Source: Bacteroidota bacterium (GTDB taxonomy: Bacteria > Bacteroidota > Ignavibacteria > UBA10030). Taken from it: 64,000 bases of DNA. Where the stretch lies: assembly GCA_041695085.1 (NCBI GenBank), contig JBGFRO010000047.1, positions 10,080-74,079 of the forward strand. Reading direction: 5' to 3'. The notes under the pieces were generated by a model. The model worked only from the letters and a program-made list of their open reading frames with translations. It searched no databases and was not told where the DNA came from. How positions within the stretch are numbered: the stretch's first letter is position 1; every line of letters starts with the position of its first letter. Both the position numbers and the translations under genes were made by a program. Positions 59,378-64,000 of this stretch are shown piece by piece.

Positions 59378-59409
59378 CCCGTTGCGTGTGCCGCAACGGG
59401 ATTTTTTTT
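59378..59409 (+). terminator. strong rho-independent terminator after the PDZ gene
   Basis: The stem CCCGTTGCG-tgtgc-CGCAACGGG is followed by ATTTTTTTT. It lies inside the ORF-track N-terminal extension of the next gene, so that extension is not real. Confidence 0.85.
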
Positions 59410-59525
59410 CCCAATTCTGGAAATTGCTCCTTCTTACGTTATCACTTATGGGAATGCCGGAATCCTTTGATCCCGTAAGTTACGCTATTTCAATTCGTTT
59501 GAGGGATTCCTATGTTTGCGAATTC

Positions 59526-59540
59526 TGGCACGTACCTTGC
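59526..59540 (+). promoter_or_regulatory. sigma-54 (-24/-12) promoter TGGCACG-N4-TTGC upstream of the PAS kinase/NtrC-like operon
   Basis: The sequence cTGGCACgtaccTTGCc has GG-to-GC spacing of exactly 12 nt. It lies 40 nt upstream of ATG 59580. Confidence 0.6.
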
Positions 59541-59579
59541 CCTACGACCAAACGTACCGTACTTTGGAGCGTCCGCACT

Positions 59580-60989
59580 ATGCAGGAATTCTATTCACGA
59601 TACGGTCGCATCTTCGATCTTCTTCCCGAGATCATCCTTGTGCTTGACGGGCAGCATCGCGTCGTCGACTATAATATCGCGGCGCAGGATAAACTGCGCA
59701 TGAGTGCGGATGGATGGATAGGGAAGGAGGTCCGCTCGCTTGTGCCGTTTGCCAAGTGGGAGGTGGTAGCAAGATATCTCGAGAGCGATGCAGAAGTCCG
59801 GCACTTCGAAACACAGTTCGTGAAGTCAAACGGTGAGGTGATGGAGATCGAGGCCGACGTGAAGGTGCTTGATGCCGGCAGGGGAAAGCGTTATCAGGTG
59901 ATCATCGCGAAAGATGTAACGGAACGGAAGCAGCGCGATCTCGATTTTCTCCGATTCTCCAACGTCATCGAGCATACCATCAATCCCATCCAGATTACCG
60001 ATGCCAGCGGCCTGATGGTGTATGTGAATCCTGCTTTTGAGAAAGCCAGCGGCTACACGCGCGAAGAACTCATCGGTAAGAACCCAAGAGTGCTCAGCAG
60101 CGGCAAGCACAGTCGGGAATTTTGGGCGAAGGTCTGGAAGTACATTCTGAGCGGTAGGGCGTGGGTGGGGCAGGTGGAGAATCGGAGGAAGGACGGCACG
60201 CCGTTCCATACCGAGTTGTTAATCTCACCCATCGTCGATTCGCAAGGAAAGGTGGTGGGGTTCCTCGGTGCCCACCGGGATATCACGGAGCAGAAGATGC
60301 TCGAGCAGCAACTTGTCCGGTCGCAAAAAATGGAAAGCATCGGCACACTTGCCGCCGGCATCGCCCACGAAGTCGGCAACCCGCTCACGTCTATTTCATC
60401 GCTCGTACAGGTGATCCAGCGGACGACGCACGACGAGTCGGCAAAAGACAAGCTCGAGTTGATCAAGAACCAAATCAACCGGATCGCGAGGATTATACGG
60501 GACTTAGTTGACTTTTCCCGCCCTTCGACGAACATCGCACGGCCGACCGACGTGAACCGGGTGGTGCGCGATGCGTTGAACATCGTACAGTACGGCAAGA
60601 AGAATAAAGAAATCACCTTCATCGTCGATCTCGAAGAATCGCTCCCTCCGTTGACCGTGGTAGCCGACCAGTTGACGCAGGTGTTCATCAATATCCTGAT
60701 CAACGCCGTCGATGCACTTGAAGGTAAGCCCGGAACGATCACGGTAAAGAGCCGTTGGGAGAAGGATGTGGTGGAAGTTATTGTTGAAGACACCGGTAAG
60801 GGGATATCAAAGGACGATCGGGAAAAAGTGTTCGAGCCGTTTTTCACAACGAAAGAGGTAGGTGAGGGAACGGGGCTCGGTTTGTGGGTCAGCTATGGGA
60901 TCGTCAAGAATTTTGGAGGCGATATTTTGGTTCAGAGCGAAGTGGGTAAAGGGAGTGTGTTTACCGTTGTCTTTCCAGTGAAAGGATGA
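59580..60989 (+). CDS. cytoplasmic PAS-domain sensor histidine kinase (NtrB-like)
   Basis: Two PAS domains are followed by the H box HEVGNPLTSISSLVQVI and an HATPase_c domain (GTGLGLWVSYGIV). The start was set to the first ATG downstream of the terminator and sigma-54 promoter. Its stop overlaps the next gene start. Confidence 0.75.
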   Translation: MQEFYSRYGRIFDLLPEIILVLDGQHRVVDYNIAAQDKLRMSADGWIGKEVRSLVPFAKWEVVARYLESDAEVRHFETQFVKSNGEVMEIEADVKVLDAGRGKRYQVIIAKDVTERKQRDLDFLRFSNVIEHTINPIQITDASGLMVYVNPAFEKASGYTREELIGKNPRVLSSGKHSREFWAKVWKYILSGRAWVGQVENRRKDGTPFHTELLISPIVDSQGKVVGFLGAHRDITEQKMLEQQLVRSQKMESIGTLAAGIAHEVGNPLTSISSLVQVIQRTTHDESAKDKLELIKNQINRIARIIRDLVDFSRPSTNIARPTDVNRVVRDALNIVQYGKKNKEITFIVDLEESLPPLTVVADQLTQVFINILINAVDALEGKPGTITVKSRWEKDVVEVIVEDTGKGISKDDREKVFEPFFTTKEVGEGTGLGLWVSYGIVKNFGGDILVQSEVGKGSVFTVVFPVKG

Positions 60990-62359
60990 GCATGGCAGAG
61001 CGTATCTTAGTTGTGGATGATGAACAAATTATTCGTGAGTCGTTGAGTTTTGTCCTACGCAAAGAAGGGTATCACGTCGACGAATCGGGAAACGGGAAAG
61101 AAGCCTTGGCAAAGCATGAGGCAGCTCCGTATGATCTCGTGATCACCGACATCGAAATGCCGGAGATGCGCGGCACGGAACTCCTCGAACGGATCACGCA
61201 ACGAACCCCTCAGACACTCGTGGTGATCGTCACCGCCTATGGTTCGATCGAAACGGCCGTAGCGGCGCTACGCAAAGGCGCCTATGATTACATTCTGAAG
61301 CCGATCGATTTCGACGACCTCCTCCTGCGCATTCAAAAACTTCTTGACCATCGTCGACTGAAGTTGGAGAATTCCCTTCTGCGTCAGGAACTCAACCGGA
61401 CGTACGACTTTGAGAACATCATCGGGCAAAGTGAAAGCATGAAGCGCGTGTTTGAGGTGATTAAACGCGTTGCATCGAGCGACGGCACGGTGTTGATTAC
61501 GGGCAAGAGCGGCACCGGCAAAGAACTGGTTGCACGCGCGATCCACTATAATAGTCACCGGCGCGGCAAACGGTTCGTTGCGATCAACTGCGGTGCCATC
61601 GTCGAGACGCTGTTTGAGAGCGAGCTCTTCGGTCACAAGAAGGGTTCGTTTACGGGTGCGACAACCGACAAGGAGGGTCTGCTGAAAGTAGCCGAAGGAG
61701 GCTCGGTGTTCTTAGATGAAGTGAGTGAGATTCCTCTCCATCTTCAGGTTAAGCTCTTGCGAGCCATCGAGCAGAAGGAGATCACTCCGGTGGGCATGAC
61801 CGATCCGATCAAAATCGATGTGCGCATCATTGCGGCGACGAACAGAAATCTCAAGAAGGAGGTGGAGGAGGGGAAATTCCGGGAAGATTTGTACTACCGA
61901 TTAAACGTCGTGGAAATCGATCTTCCGTCGCTCTCCGAACGGCCAGAAGATATCCCGCTCCTCAGCCGGCATTTTCTCGACGCGTACAAGAAGCAGATGG
62001 GGAGACCCATTCAGGGCTTCACCAATGAAGCGATGAACGCGCTCATTCACTATCAGTGGAAAGGAGAGGTGCGTGAGCTGCAGAACGTCATCGAACGAGC
62101 GGTAATCTTTTGTGACGGAGAGTTCATCGGTCTGGAGCATCTACCCGAATCGTTTCGCCGGGTTGCCCTGGAACATCCGCTCGAAATGCACAAAGGACAG
62201 AAGACCTTGAAAGAGGCAGTGAAAATGTTCGAGCGATCGTACATCGAGCAAGTGCTCCTCAACTACAACCGCAATAAGGAAAGCGCCGCCCAGGCCCTCG
62301 GCGTCAGTCTTTCCTCTCTGTATCGAAAAATGGAGGAGCTTAACATCCCGACTCGCTAA
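60986..62359 (+). CDS. sigma-54-dependent Fis-family response regulator (NtrC-like)
   Basis: REC motifs are ILVVDDEQ and DLVITDIEMP. The AAA+ motifs are GKSGTGKELVARAIH and the GAFTGA variant GSFTGA (ELFGHKKGSFTGA). The C-terminal Fis HTH is QALGVSLSSLYRKMEEL. Confidence 0.9.
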   Translation: MSMAERILVVDDEQIIRESLSFVLRKEGYHVDESGNGKEALAKHEAAPYDLVITDIEMPEMRGTELLERITQRTPQTLVVIVTAYGSIETAVAALRKGAYDYILKPIDFDDLLLRIQKLLDHRRLKLENSLLRQELNRTYDFENIIGQSESMKRVFEVIKRVASSDGTVLITGKSGTGKELVARAIHYNSHRRGKRFVAINCGAIVETLFESELFGHKKGSFTGATTDKEGLLKVAEGGSVFLDEVSEIPLHLQVKLLRAIEQKEITPVGMTDPIKIDVRIIAATNRNLKKEVEEGKFREDLYYRLNVVEIDLPSLSERPEDIPLLSRHFLDAYKKQMGRPIQGFTNEAMNALIHYQWKGEVRELQNVIERAVIFCDGEFIGLEHLPESFRRVALEHPLEMHKGQKTLKEAVKMFERSYIEQVLLNYNRNKESAAQALGVSLSSLYRKMEELNIPTR

Positions 62360-62445
62360 CGTCGCTCCAAACCACCTTCGGACAGGACACGAAGGATTTT
62401 CGTCGCGTCCGTCTCCAATTTCCTACCATTTACTCTTCTAAAGAG

Positions 62446-63168: not shown

Positions 63169-63225
63169 CCCACAGGATGAATGATCGGCACAACGTCAGA
63201 TCACTCTCCTGTGGGATTTTTGTTT
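63169..63225 (+). terminator. hairpin CCCACAGGA-N29-TCCTGTGGG followed by ATTTTTGTTT
   Basis: A 9-bp perfect inverted repeat is followed by a T-tract. It lies 30 nt after the small TM ORF. Confidence 0.5.
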
Positions 63226-63355
63226 CCAAGAATCGGCAATGTTTTCTTCTCGAAAATATGCGAATCGTCCCGCAGCGAAATATTTTACTCACGCAACAAC
63301 CTCAAAATTTCCTCACAATCTGAGCCTCTCTTCGCATTGTCACGGTCTCCGATGC

Positions 63356-63370
63356 GGCATATAACTTGCA
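63356..63370 (+). promoter_or_regulatory. sigma-54-like -24/-12 element cGGCAT-N5-TTGCA
   Basis: The GG and GC dinucleotides are correctly spaced at 12 nt. It matches 4/6 and 5/5 of the consensus blocks. It lies about 135 nt upstream of the cytochrome gene ATG. Confidence 0.4.
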
Positions 63371-63404
63371 TCTCAGCGTTCAGTGCAACCGCAATTGTGT
63401 TTTT

Positions 63405-63437
63405 CAACACTCCTCCGAAGTCGAGGTTGGAGTGTTG
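63405..63437 (+). other. 5'UTR hairpin CAACACTCC-N15-GGAGTGTTG between the -12 element and the cytochrome gene RBS
   Basis: A 9-bp perfect inverted repeat was read directly. It lies upstream of the AGGAGG RBS. Confidence 0.4.
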
Positions 63438-63506
63438 TTGAGTATTTCTACATCTGCCCCGAAATCGTTGTGGGTGCTGTTTAAATCCTCACATTAGGAG
63501 GCTCAT

Positions 63507-64000
63507 ATGATAAAAGGTAAACTTCTTTGTGTCGCGGCTCTCTTTTTTCTGGTCAACTCTGCAGTGGCTCAAAAGATCGCCATCAGGGTTGAAGGGATGT
63601 CCATCCATCGATTGAACACGATGCGACTTCCTCATCCCAACAACTGGGATAACGTCTCGAGCGGTCTCACGAAAGTTGGAACAGGGACGATGGTGTGGTT
63701 ATCCGGTTGGGACATCACGGGCGACTCGACGTACAAAGCCGGTACGAACTATCTGTGGAGTATGACGTCGCGACCGACAGGATCCACGGCGGCATTGGAT
63801 AGCACAACGAAGCAATGGACTTCGTTCCGACCCGACAAAGAAGGGGACTACGTTATCCGGCTCACCATCGGAGCCAAGGATACAACGGTTACTATTACTG
63901 CTGCAAAGCATACCGGCGTGAACTGGAAGAACCTCTCCGGGGCTGCCATGAATTGTGCTTCGTGCCACACTACCGCTGCACCTGAAGCTCTTCGTAACTG
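63507..64000 (+). CDS. secreted c-type-cytochrome-like protein, partial; its 3' end lies beyond the window
   Basis: A strong AGGAGG RBS lies 5 nt upstream of the ATG. The signal peptide is MIKGKLLCVAALFFLVNSAVAQ. A haem c-binding CxxCH (NCASCHTT) sits near the window end. The ORF is not in the ORF track because no stop lies within the window. Confidence 0.55.
   Translation, partial: MIKGKLLCVAALFFLVNSAVAQKIAIRVEGMSIHRLNTMRLPHPNNWDNVSSGLTKVGTGTMVWLSGWDITGDSTYKAGTNYLWSMTSRPTGSTAALDSTTKQWTSFRPDKEGDYVIRLTIGAKDTTVTITAAKHTGVNWKNLSGAAMNCASCHTTAAPEALRN

Follow-up and report, generated by a model that had tools for sequence, protein, structure and literature searches.

The NtrB/NtrC system, encoded by glnALG, is a two-component system in which the sigma-54 activator carries REC, AAA+ and Fis-type HTH domains and autoregulates its own operon. 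NtrC dimers have tandem sites separated by some three helical turns, at a distance of roughly 100-140 bp on the upstream side of the promoter. Dedicated anti-activators of enhancer-binding proteins (EBPs), as in the pairs PspA-PspF, NifL-NifA, HrpV-HrpS and FleN-FleQ, are often encoded in or beside the regulon, and those of the PspA, NifL, HrpV and FleN type act through protein-protein contact with the AAA+ domain. In eukaryotes, ICER/CREM and C/EBP-beta LIP are activator-induced bZIP products that comprise the DNA-binding domain only, made from promoters or start codons inside the same gene; by taking over the sites of the activator they terminate the response.

A DNA-binding-only competitor is also described in Streptococcus gallolyticus, where the LytTR-domain-only protein BlpS is encoded beside BlpRH in an autoinduced regulon, shares the consensus sites of BlpR and competes with the phosphorylated activator, resulting in negative feedback (PMC8545106). 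As the same article summarises, the LytTR regulatory systems of S. mutans include a DNA-binding-domain-only regulator that is co-transcribed with a small membrane protein controlling it (PMC8545106). In the literature searched, this design was not found reported for a sigma-54 activator or for a Fis-type HTH. Thus, the design considered here, which the initial annotation did not know to be described, has a precedent in another regulator family and would be new for sigma-54 activators.

The window (the whole stretch of DNA that was analysed, 64,000 nt in length) contains a conserved sigma-54 regulon of Ignavibacteria, with the following gene content observed directly.

59580..60989, plus strand: cytoplasmic PAS-PAS-HisKA-HATPase histidine kinase, 469 aa (Pfam)
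60986..62359, plus strand: NtrC-type enhancer-binding response regulator (the EBP), 457 aa (Pfam: REC, Sigma54_activat, AAA_lid_14, HTH_8)
62610..62876, plus strand: HTH_8-only protein (the small HTH), 88 aa, with an AGGAG ribosome-binding site (Pfam HTH_8)
62946..63137, plus strand: single-pass membrane protein, 63 aa
63507..64000, plus strand: secreted nonahaem c-type cytochrome, 5' part, running off the window
59376..59402, plus strand: intrinsic terminator ending the upstream PDZ gene, with a stem of 11 bp and then T7
63167..63226, plus strand: hairpin and U run closing the P2 operon, -39.8 kcal/mol, z = -6.1

The kinase start codon is backed by orthologue alignment and by the JGI gene call, and the EBP, which has a GSFTGA loop in its AAA+ domain, falls below the NCBIfam cut-offs for ntrC and AtoC. 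As in NtrB/NtrC, the activator is a two-component EBP with REC, AAA+ and Fis-type HTH domains. However, the PAS kinase that serves as sensor here has no PII input, the regulon concerns redox and respiratory functions instead of nitrogen, and the locus has an additional DNA-binding-only paralogue, the 88-aa protein, in which HTH_8 is the sole Pfam domain (43.7 bits against a cut-off of 22). Unlike the EBP anti-activators, this protein has a DNA-binding fold alone. The membrane protein, with its conserved acidic C-terminal motif NFGAFPPDIPExEF, was detected immediately 3' of the small HTH gene in 21 of 28 syntenic loci, and the two genes would form one transcription unit from P2. This operon resembles the S. 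mutans LytTR systems, but the domain family differs and the analogy is a lead only. The signal-peptide CxxCH protein of the initial annotation is indeed a secreted cytochrome, 707 aa in full length with nine CxxCH motifs and a T9SS sorting domain at its tail, of which the window holds the first 164 codons only; further redox genes, just beyond its edge, seem to be part of this regulon as well. Both annotated terminators were found, the one behind the PDZ gene with its T run and the strong hairpin behind the 63-aa ORF.

Conservation of the HTH-only gene beside its regulator, a question raised with the initial annotation, was observed in 27 Ignavibacteria/Bacteroidota species genomes that keep the order of EBP and small HTH, an order that stays while the downstream cargo varies. 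In these 27 species the ORF is intact and its ribosome-binding site and promoter are conserved. The gene is under strong purifying selection, its pN/pS being 0.03-0.17 with synonymous sites saturated. The ORF is short and HTH_8 fragments are numerous in metagenomes, as a chance ORF or a decaying functionless fragment would have it, but its intactness, its pN/pS and the retention of its ribosome-binding site and promoter effectively refute that reading.

Three sigma-54 promoter elements were found in the locus.

59526..59540, plus strand: P1, sigma-54 promoter, TGGCACGTACCTTGC, with the kinase ATG 40 nt downstream
62555..62570, plus strand: P2, sigma-54 promoter of the small-HTH operon, TGGCACATTCCTTGCA (TGGCACATTCCTTGC(A))
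63356..63370, plus strand: P3, sigma-54-like promoter, GGCATATAACTTGCA, with the cytochrome ATG 137 nt downstream

These are the -24/-12 elements first annotated at 59526, 62555 and 63356, and they are conserved in relatives. P1 and P2 match TGGCAC-N5-TTGC exactly, and P3 is weaker (GGCAT-N5-TTGCA). In the 64-kb window the exact pattern occurs three times against 0.07 expected, a count reached in 0 of 100 shuffles; the third match, at 52102 on the minus strand, is antisense within a large gene. The looser pattern of the P3 type has two window matches against 0.42 expected. Among the syntenic loci, the P2 element is present in 27/27 (22 of them exact at 10/10 and 5 with a single mismatch), and it is also kept in three more distant loci, while a P3 counterpart, GG[CT]A[CT]-N5-TTG, lies at a similar distance in 12/12 loci with a cytochrome homologue. 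The view that P1, P2 and P3 are real, conserved promoters of one regulon is supported by these sequence comparisons. The proposal that the kinase/EBP operon is itself sigma-54-dependent fits the presence of P1 with its EBP-type sites, but this arrangement is confined to a sub-clade of relatives; the TTGCC of P1 is also the start of CTTGCC-N18-TAnnTT(T)G, an element conserved more widely.

The inverted repeats at 62446-62498 and 59433-59479, once put forward as activator sites, are not the elements that are conserved. The conserved motif is instead a 16-bp palindrome, TTCTMA-N4-TKAGAA, which occurs at P2 and P1 and, among relatives, also at the promoter of the cytochrome.

62436..62451, unstranded: predicted upstream activator site A at P2, TTCTAAAGAGTGGGAA, PWM score 17.3, best in the window
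62468..62483, unstranded: predicted upstream activator site B at P2, TTCTCATTTTTGAGCG, spacing to site A exactly 32 bp
59408..59423, unstranded: distal palindrome at P1, TTCCCAATTCTGGAAA, PWM score 12.9, fourth in the 64-kb window
59439..59454, unstranded: second palindrome at P1, TTATCACTTATGGGAA, with the T of TGGCAC 87 bp downstream
59507..59522, unstranded: promoter-proximal palindrome at P1, TTCCTATGTTTGCGAA, ending 3 nt before the -24 element

Site A has a match at its position in 24 of 25 scanned promoters (none in locus L030) and is weak in several distant loci. Two clear palindromes exactly 32 bp apart are seen at P2 in about 20 of 27 loci, with weaker palindromes or a single one in the remainder, and the distance of the tandem to P2 is fixed. 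At P1 the motif occupies positions -118, -87 and -19, and it is restricted to loci in which P1 has its -24 element. Counted from the T of TGGCAC, the start of the distal palindrome is 118 bp upstream; the second lies at the same 87 bp as the promoter-nearer site at P2 and is kept in 6/7 loci with the -24 element (L013 has no match of at least 7). In relatives, the P3 palindromes lie at about -136 and -90, and those in this window are weak (score 5.8). A tandem arrangement like that of NtrC is found in this locus too. EBP dimers would bind TTCTMA-N4-TKAGAA at a distance of about 90-120 bp on the upstream side of GG-N10-GC promoters, with a spacing of 31-32 bp wherever there are two sites.

The 88-aa protein comprises a three-helix NtrC-type DNA-binding domain (residues 20-63), a disordered N-terminus and an acidic C-terminal tail. 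A profile search matched the whole DNA-binding domain of Aquifex aeolicus NtrC4, including the dimerisation helix (4FTH/3E7L, E = 2e-8), and the AF2 model superposes on this closest solved structure at 0.5 A over 47 residues, the full-domain alignment extending to the ...LS.LYRK recognition helix. In NtrC4 this domain forms the C-terminal part of a complete EBP, whereas the 88-aa protein is a free-standing gene product whose core is basic and whose tail is acidic. The core charge is +5 compared to 0 for the EBP domain, as expected for a stand-alone DNA binder.

[quoted passage not shown] The small protein might accordingly act as an architectural co-activator, its dimer binding and bending the DNA between enhancer and promoter in place of IHF, so that the EBP would reach sigma-54 polymerase more easily in a positive feed-forward loop. 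Such a role is compatible with its highly basic core and with a further conserved element, palindromic in part, which is located between activator sites and promoters. Its C-terminal three helices superpose on those of Fis, but it is without the N-terminal beta-hairpin arm and helix A and has no significant sequence match, Fis not being returned in the profile search at E <= 0.01. In addition, the gene is locus-specific and predicted to be sigma-54-dependent, unlike that of Fis, a global nucleoid protein. The intermediate element could be an alternative real target of the small protein; however, its sequence is variable with no consistent inverted repeat found, and the invariant, sequence-specific recognition helix common to the EBP favours EBP sites, leaving this co-activator role rather improbable.

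Similarity between the 88-aa ORF and the EBP C-terminus, annotated as about 49% over 45 residues, was measured at 46% over 48 (E = 9e-11). The recognition helix reads SLSSLYRK or SISSLYRK in both proteins in all 29 genome pairs (the window and 28 loci), being identical between partners in 24/29 and one residue apart in 5/29. It is a rare helix by a joint search with the patterns ISLSSLYRK and [NDE]DKR[KSN]VAKL, which gave 369 matching stretches in 185,579 species genomes. In LuxO, the positions equivalent to S, Y, R and K are required for DNA binding (PMC11407668). Across the domain, however, the small protein is 47% identical to its neighbour's HTH and on average 54% (maximum 65%) identical to HTHs of motif-selected EBPs from other phyla. 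Since these are more similar, the small HTH is not a stand-alone copy of the activator's own domain, as initially described, and its origin as a recent copy was rejected; it is instead an old paralogue within the DNA-binding domains of the same EBP subfamily. Both proteins also have the helix-1 hydrophobic pattern L-x3-V-x2-Y/F-E-R-x2-I-x3-L, and NtrC-family domains dimerise via helix 1 (PMC11407668), so that the small protein could pair with the EBP DNA-binding domain and alter its dimer geometry or oligomerisation rather than compete for DNA. As this pattern is general among HTH_8 domains, we consider such heterodimers quite unlikely.

In combination, these features suggest, with a probability of about 0.45, that the small HTH is a built-in brake, acting as a decoy in negative feedback on the EBP. 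The cytoplasmic PAS kinase would phosphorylate the EBP, which would drive P1 (its own operon, in this sub-clade only), P2 as its strongest and most conserved target, and P3, placing the secreted nine-haem cytochrome under EBP control. With its dimerisation helix retained and its recognition helix identical to that of the EBP, but with no receiver or ATPase domain, the small protein would dimerise on the EBP palindromes and, because it is unable to remodel sigma-54 polymerase, displace or block the EBP. Each activation burst would then induce its own brake, resulting in negative feedback or a pulse, and modulation of this brake, or of the kinase, may be the role of the membrane protein. Both the binding of the small protein at EBP sites and the sign of its effect are what we infer. 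The nearest parallel is BlpS, with LytTR, sigma-70 promoters and Gram-positive peptide signalling; here a Fis-type HTH, with its own sigma-54 promoter, is predicted to compete with an AAA+ sigma-54 EBP at a distant enhancer.

Alternatively, the EBP may induce the small HTH as a second-tier regulator of other genes, for example at sigma-A promoters elsewhere, with any effect at EBP sites incidental. A sigma-54/EBP-driven small repressor of other genes is reported in Cereibacter (PMC11999139), and the small HTH is the most conserved and best-sited EBP target while the remaining regulon varies. Its charge is unlike that of the EBP domain, as is helix 2 (DKRKVAKLL compared to NKESAAQAL); this helix may contact DNA, and the specificity of the small protein could therefore differ. 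However, since the small protein shares both the recognition helix and the dimer fold of the EBP, it could hardly avoid binding the EBP palindromes. Other target sites were not found; the PWM matches that rank next in the window (28670 and 29928) have no promoter context. A second-tier role is thus unlikely, though less so than the co-activator and heterodimer roles.

Two further observations, on the small protein's tail and on P1, count against the brake. The acidic tail is conserved and has no role under a simple decoy model. The promoter-proximal palindrome at P1 is placed like an operator; it abuts P1 in the window and in L011, L013, L014, L015, L029 and L089, and is absent wherever the -24 element is absent. 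In L089 no small-HTH gene lies behind the EBP, and the species-genome scan returned none in that MAG, so the operator-like site does not require the small protein.

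Comparison of related genomes revealed a conserved unit that consists of an NtrC-type enhancer-binding response regulator (EBP), EBP-type tandem sites, a sigma-54 promoter and a paralogue limited to the DNA-binding domain, whose recognition helix is that of the EBP. The initial annotation had observed the activator and a sigma-54-driven stand-alone HTH in the window, together with a PAS kinase and a secreted cytochrome, and the observation as a whole is borne out and considerably strengthened by the comparative data. Every gene in the 58.3-64.0 kb region is found on the + strand, and the relevant features are as follows:

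59376-59402, + strand: strong terminator of the PDZ protein gene, upstream of the kinase gene
59580-60989, + strand: cytoplasmic PAS-PAS histidine kinase
60986-62359, + strand: EBP with REC, Sigma54_activat (GSFTGA loop), AAA_lid and HTH_8 domains
62610-62876, + strand: 88-aa ORF, HTH_8 only
62946-63137, + strand: 63-aa single-pass membrane ORF
After the 63-aa ORF, + strand: strong hairpin and U run (-39.8 kcal/mol, z = -6.1)
63507 onwards, + strand: cytochrome gene, start only in the window

The receiver domain of the EBP scores 114.6 bits for Response_reg (Pfam, cut-off 30.2), with the phospho-acceptor Asp motif LVITDIEMP in the translation. Its AAA+ domain matches Sigma54_activat at 242.7 bits (Pfam), where the GAFTGA-type loop is the variant GSFTGA, and the C-terminal Fis-type HTH matches HTH_8 at 33.1 bits (cut-off 22). 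Scores below the NCBIfam equivalog cut-offs for AtoC (470 vs 714), ntrC (415 vs 559) and ZraR (404 vs 760) place the EBP in the superfamily, outside any named orthologue group (AtoC, NtrC and ZraR tested). The cytochrome is a protein of 707 aa on the JGI metagenome contig Ga0484002_000046 (172 kb, including the window), with a signal peptide, nine CxxCH motifs and a T9SS sorting domain. There was no Rfam match within 59000-64000, and no rpoN gene was found in the window, where annotation upstream of the island covered the ten longest ORFs. Directly upstream, a 1407-aa hybrid kinase is encoded at 53862-58085 (domains Reg_prop/Y_Y_Y, PAS, HisKA, HATPase and REC); its kinase core and the island PAS kinase share 36% identity, and its position beside the PDZ gene is kept in at least three relatives (L011, L013 and L014).

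The 88-aa protein (small HTH) matches Pfam PF02954 (HTH_8) at 43.7 bits (gathering score 22). More than 120 homologues were collected at 90% clustering, all of them 59-144 aa in length with HTH_8 only, and the invariant core residues include DKR.V..L.IS.SSLYRK. As the pN/pS of the core against relatives is 0.03-0.17, with synonymous sites near saturation, the small HTH is a real gene under strong constraint. NCBIfam contains no model for the 88-aa or the 63-aa protein, and the family of the former is at present without a name. A profile of the small HTH, run against a single genome for each species, matched 80 loci; among the named genomes, the closest is a MAG that carries the label Ignavibacterium album. 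The gene is downstream of an EBP orthologue in 28 loci, which come from different Ignavibacteria and Bacteroidota MAGs (EBP identity 68-98%, small-HTH identity 60-91%). The usual gene order there is PDZ, kinase, EBP, small HTH, and the 63-aa gene and a cytochrome often come next. Three more distant family members retain the EBP/promoter/small-HTH arrangement, with 62-66% identity to the EBP where one is present in the locus. These distant loci differ in their downstream cargo, which comprises thioredoxin, OsmC, ZIP and hemerythrin in one and acetyl-CoA hydrolase in another.

Three sigma-54 promoters had been annotated initially, upstream of the kinase/EBP operon (P1, 59526), the small-HTH operon (P2, 62555) and the cytochrome (P3, 63356), and all three are present as stated. 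P1 and P2 are two of the three exact matches to TGGCAC-N5-TTGC in 64 kb, compared to 0.07 expected and none of 100 shuffles reaching three, and P3 reads GGCAT-N5-TTGCA. P2 and P3 are kept in relatives. The P2 element precedes the small gene in 27/27 loci (10/10 match in 22, one mismatch in five), three of which were read by eye; L028, where the sequence covers only the last 102 EBP residues, was excluded from the original 28. Upstream of the cytochrome, GG[CT]A[CT]-N5-TTG is found in 12/12 homologues, at 117-225 nt from the start codon in 11. The cytochrome leader after P3 (63371-63506) spans about 125 nt, with a small hairpin at 63413-63432 and no Rfam match, and the leaders of relatives are likewise long (117-225 nt).

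Promoter-anchored alignments contain a 16-bp palindrome, TTCTMA-N4-TKAGAA. P2 has two copies of it, whose starts are exactly 32 bp apart, at about -120 and -88 when counted from the T of TGGCAC. A PWM derived from the P2 palindromes ranks these two sites first and second in the 64-kb window, and sites upstream of P1 are three of its next eight best matches:

62436-62451 and 62468-62483: P2 palindromes, from promoter-anchored alignment and PWM
59408, 59439 and 59507: P1-upstream palindromes, at -118, -87 and -19

The P2 upstream elements are predicted to be EBP-type tandem activator sites. From the positions of its matches, P1 repeats the geometry of P2 and has one more palindrome, the third, which stops 3 nt short of the -24 element. 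At P3, many relatives have palindromes at about -136 and -90; those in the window are weak (score 5.8). The inverted repeats proposed earlier (62451-62459/62490-62498 and 59434-59443/59470-59479) are not kept as repeats in L011 and other relatives, in which the 16-bp palindromes are kept instead. The PWM was adopted in place of a TGAGAA-N16-TTCTCA consensus, dropped as unspecific (13 matches at >=10/12 vs 5.3 in shuffles). The PWM matches at 28670-28685 (14.6) and 29928-29943 (11.5) were rejected as regulon sites, with no sigma-54 element beside either, and are possibly chance. The third exact TGGCAC-N5-TTGC (52102-52116, - strand) is antisense inside a 1578-aa fn3/T9SS-tail gene (49057-53793), with none of the window's top 25 PWM matches nearby, and may reflect either chance or sigma-54 binding within the gene.

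The -24 element of P1 and its palindromes co-occur in seven loci (the window, L011, L013, L014, L015, L029 and L089) and are jointly absent in all other loci, making the predicted sigma-54 autoregulation of the kinase/EBP operon a sub-clade feature. The earlier view of this operon as sigma-54-driven is supported for the locus studied here, with its promoter and EBP-type sites, and is confined to that sub-clade. Overlapping the P1 -12 box is a further sequence, CTTGCC-N18-TAnnTT(T)G, which is upstream of the kinase gene at 59536-59571 and at orthologous positions in L016-L040 and L086, and is kept in most loci lacking the -24 element there; the exceptions, without a match, are L034 and L037. 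The sequence is similar to a -33/-7 primary promoter of Bacteroidota, or to a GCCAA..TTGGC repeat. Reading CTTGCC-N18-TAnnTTTG as a Bacteroidetes-type -33/-7 promoter is weakly supported, TAnnTTTG being rare in the window (8 copies, three upstream of genes). The sigma-54 P1 was probably layered on an older promoter of the operon. In L089 (5789-12206), an Ignavibacteriales kinase/EBP orthologue pair of 71% identity has the sigma-54 P1 and both palindromes, and its EBP is followed by REC-like, DksA-like, TonB-like and universal-stress genes and a multihaem cytochrome. No small-HTH gene was found after this EBP, nor from that MAG, which may be incomplete, in the species-genome scan. The presence of the promoter-proximal P1 palindrome in L089 without the small gene weakens its reading as a small-HTH-specific operator, and this palindrome is probably used by the EBP itself.

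The small-protein profile aligns to the whole DNA-binding domain of Aquifex NtrC4, including the dimerisation helix (4FTH/3E7L, E = 2e-8). Action of the small HTH as a heterodimer poison of the EBP is judged very unlikely. Three helices of an AF2 model are confident (20-38, 43-50 and 54-63) and the tails are disordered; superposition of the model on DNA-bound NtrC4 gives 0.5 A for 47 residues. In 29/29 genome pairs the recognition helix of the EBP is SLSSLYRK, and that of the small protein is the same, or SISSLYRK in one clade. This helix is uncommon, as two search patterns (one being ISLSSLYRK) jointly matched 369 stretches in 185,579 species genomes. In LuxO, the S, Y, R and K positions corresponding to SLSSLYRK residues are required for DNA binding (PMC11407668). 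Given the identical recognition helix and the same fold, the small HTH probably binds the same sites as the EBP, and the conserved sigma-54 promoter with EBP-type tandem sites predicts its expression under EBP control. A protein that shares this fold and helix and is co-expressed with active EBP would hardly fail to occupy the EBP sites to some extent.

The initial annotation took the small HTH for a copy of the adjacent activator's own domain, a description that does not hold. Identity to the HTH of its own EBP is 47% over 46 aligned residues, compared to a mean of 54% (up to 65%) for helix-sharing EBP HTHs of Binatia, Myxococcales and Calditrichia, a cross-phylum value biased upward because those EBPs were selected by motif. 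On this comparison, recent duplication of the 3' end of the neighbouring EBP gene was rejected. The core of the small protein has a net charge of about +5, and that of the EBP domain is about 0. A conserved acidic tail of the small protein, disordered and some 20 residues long, has a charge of about -5. Both are derived features that are not found in the EBP. The tail is shorter in clades without a detected 63-aa gene, with the exception of L036, where a 10-residue tail and the gene are both present.

To our knowledge, the known antagonists or brakes of EBPs (PspA, NifL, HrpV and FleN) act on the ATPase domain. In the reading preferred here, a dimer of the small HTH would bind the palindromes of the EBP and, having no AAA+ domain, would lower EBP occupancy or hexamer assembly. 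Lowered occupancy would result in negative feedback, and at the cytochrome promoter in an incoherent feed-forward pulse. We assign this full model a probability of roughly 0.45. Points against a simple decoy are that helix 2 differs, that the acidic tail has no role in such a model, and that L089 has the promoter-proximal P1 palindrome without the small gene. Alternatively, the small HTH may be a second-tier regulator with its own targets, which we regard as unlikely.

A second conserved and partly palindromic element, of the type ATTTC..GAAAT, sits between the activator sites and the promoters (about 62513-62537, 63296-63318 and 59488-59506 in the window). Its sequence differs from clade to clade, as in GGCCAATTCGAGTCGAATTTGGCAG in L016 and TGCGAAAATTCGCA in L017 and L019, and when the copy between enhancer and P2 was searched for an inverted repeat, no consistent one emerged. 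Either an architectural protein or the small HTH could bind the element. A conserved element in this position favors a role for the small HTH as a Fis-like, DNA-bending co-activator, as does the cooperation of Fis with LuxO and sigma-54 at qrr promoters (PMC11407668). The PDB profile search returned NtrC4, NtrC1 and NtrC and did not return Fis at E <= 0.01, and the N-terminal beta-hairpin arms and helix A of Fis are not in the AF2 model; we consider this role quite unlikely.

A precedent for the negative-feedback model is BlpS of Streptococcus gallolyticus, a 108-aa protein with a LytTR domain only, encoded beside BlpRH, which binds the 30-bp consensus of BlpR and competes with phosphorylated BlpR in a negative feedback loop (PMC8545106). 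LytTR-only regulators co-transcribed with an inhibitory membrane protein are also known (PMC8545106), and the operon of the 88-aa HTH and 63-aa membrane protein resembles these pairs. Like BlpS, the 88-aa protein is only the DNA-binding domain of its partner's family, encoded beside a two-component system. Unlike BlpS, which belongs to a LytTR/sigma-70 system, it belongs to an AAA+ enhancer-binding system, and the locus can be described as a BlpS-like arrangement in such a system, with a predicted function. The design, initially presented as undescribed, was thus already described for another family (PMC8545106), and a literature search found no description of a sigma-54-driven HTH_8-only paralogue or Fis-type equivalent. 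The initial interpretation is partly supported: the promoter elements and the conservation stand, and the inverted repeats proposed as sites, the undescribed design and the own-domain copy do not. If the model is true, a conserved, activator-induced copy of a DNA-binding domain would tune sigma-54 activators by competition at the enhancer, in addition to the mechanisms already known, and the BlpS-type design would apply to AAA+ activators as well as to LytTR/sigma-70 systems.

In the 63-aa protein, the cytoplasmic motif NFGAFPP(D/E)IP(E/D)xEF(D/E)xxxF is very conserved and the tail is strongly acidic. The small basic HTH could dock on this protein, as LytTR-only regulators do on their membrane inhibitors. 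Small membrane proteins that act on kinases include MgrB, which acts on PhoQ, and the 63-aa protein could alternatively dock the membrane-less PAS kinase in a similar manner. Taken furthest, the 88-aa protein would be the first natural sigma-54 EBP antagonist made of a DNA-binding domain only, expressed from a sigma-54 promoter fired by the activator it displaces. Together with a 63-aa protein gating the small HTH or the kinase, it would form a self-limiting pulse circuit for extracellular-respiration genes, maintained as one evolutionary unit across Ignavibacteria and relatives. This extended proposal is tentative, with the odds somewhat against it.

Further sigma-54-like elements are found on the same contig beyond the window end (coordinates of L002, the locus covering that part of the contig, about window +52609):

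13249, 14530-14612 and 19401-19493: sigma-54-like elements

GGCATACAACTTGA, a sigma-54-like sequence without a strong palindrome, precedes a REC-like/DksA-like/coiled-coil operon. The palindrome TTCTAAAAAGTGGGAA and TGGAAC-N5-TTGC are upstream of the PFOR and DHODH genes, and the palindrome TTCTCGGTTTTGAGAA and TGGCAC-N5-TTGT are upstream of the HemN gene. As pairs of palindrome and sigma-54-like element also precede PFOR and HemN on this contig, the locus is a regulon island. A binding motif, site geometry and regulon are defined for a two-component system of an uncultured lineage, offering a testable handle on the regulation of extracellular electron transfer in Ignavibacteria. With the nine-haem T9SS cytochrome and, just outside the window, the PFOR, HemN and DksA-like genes, the content of the regulon looks redox-related or anaerobic.
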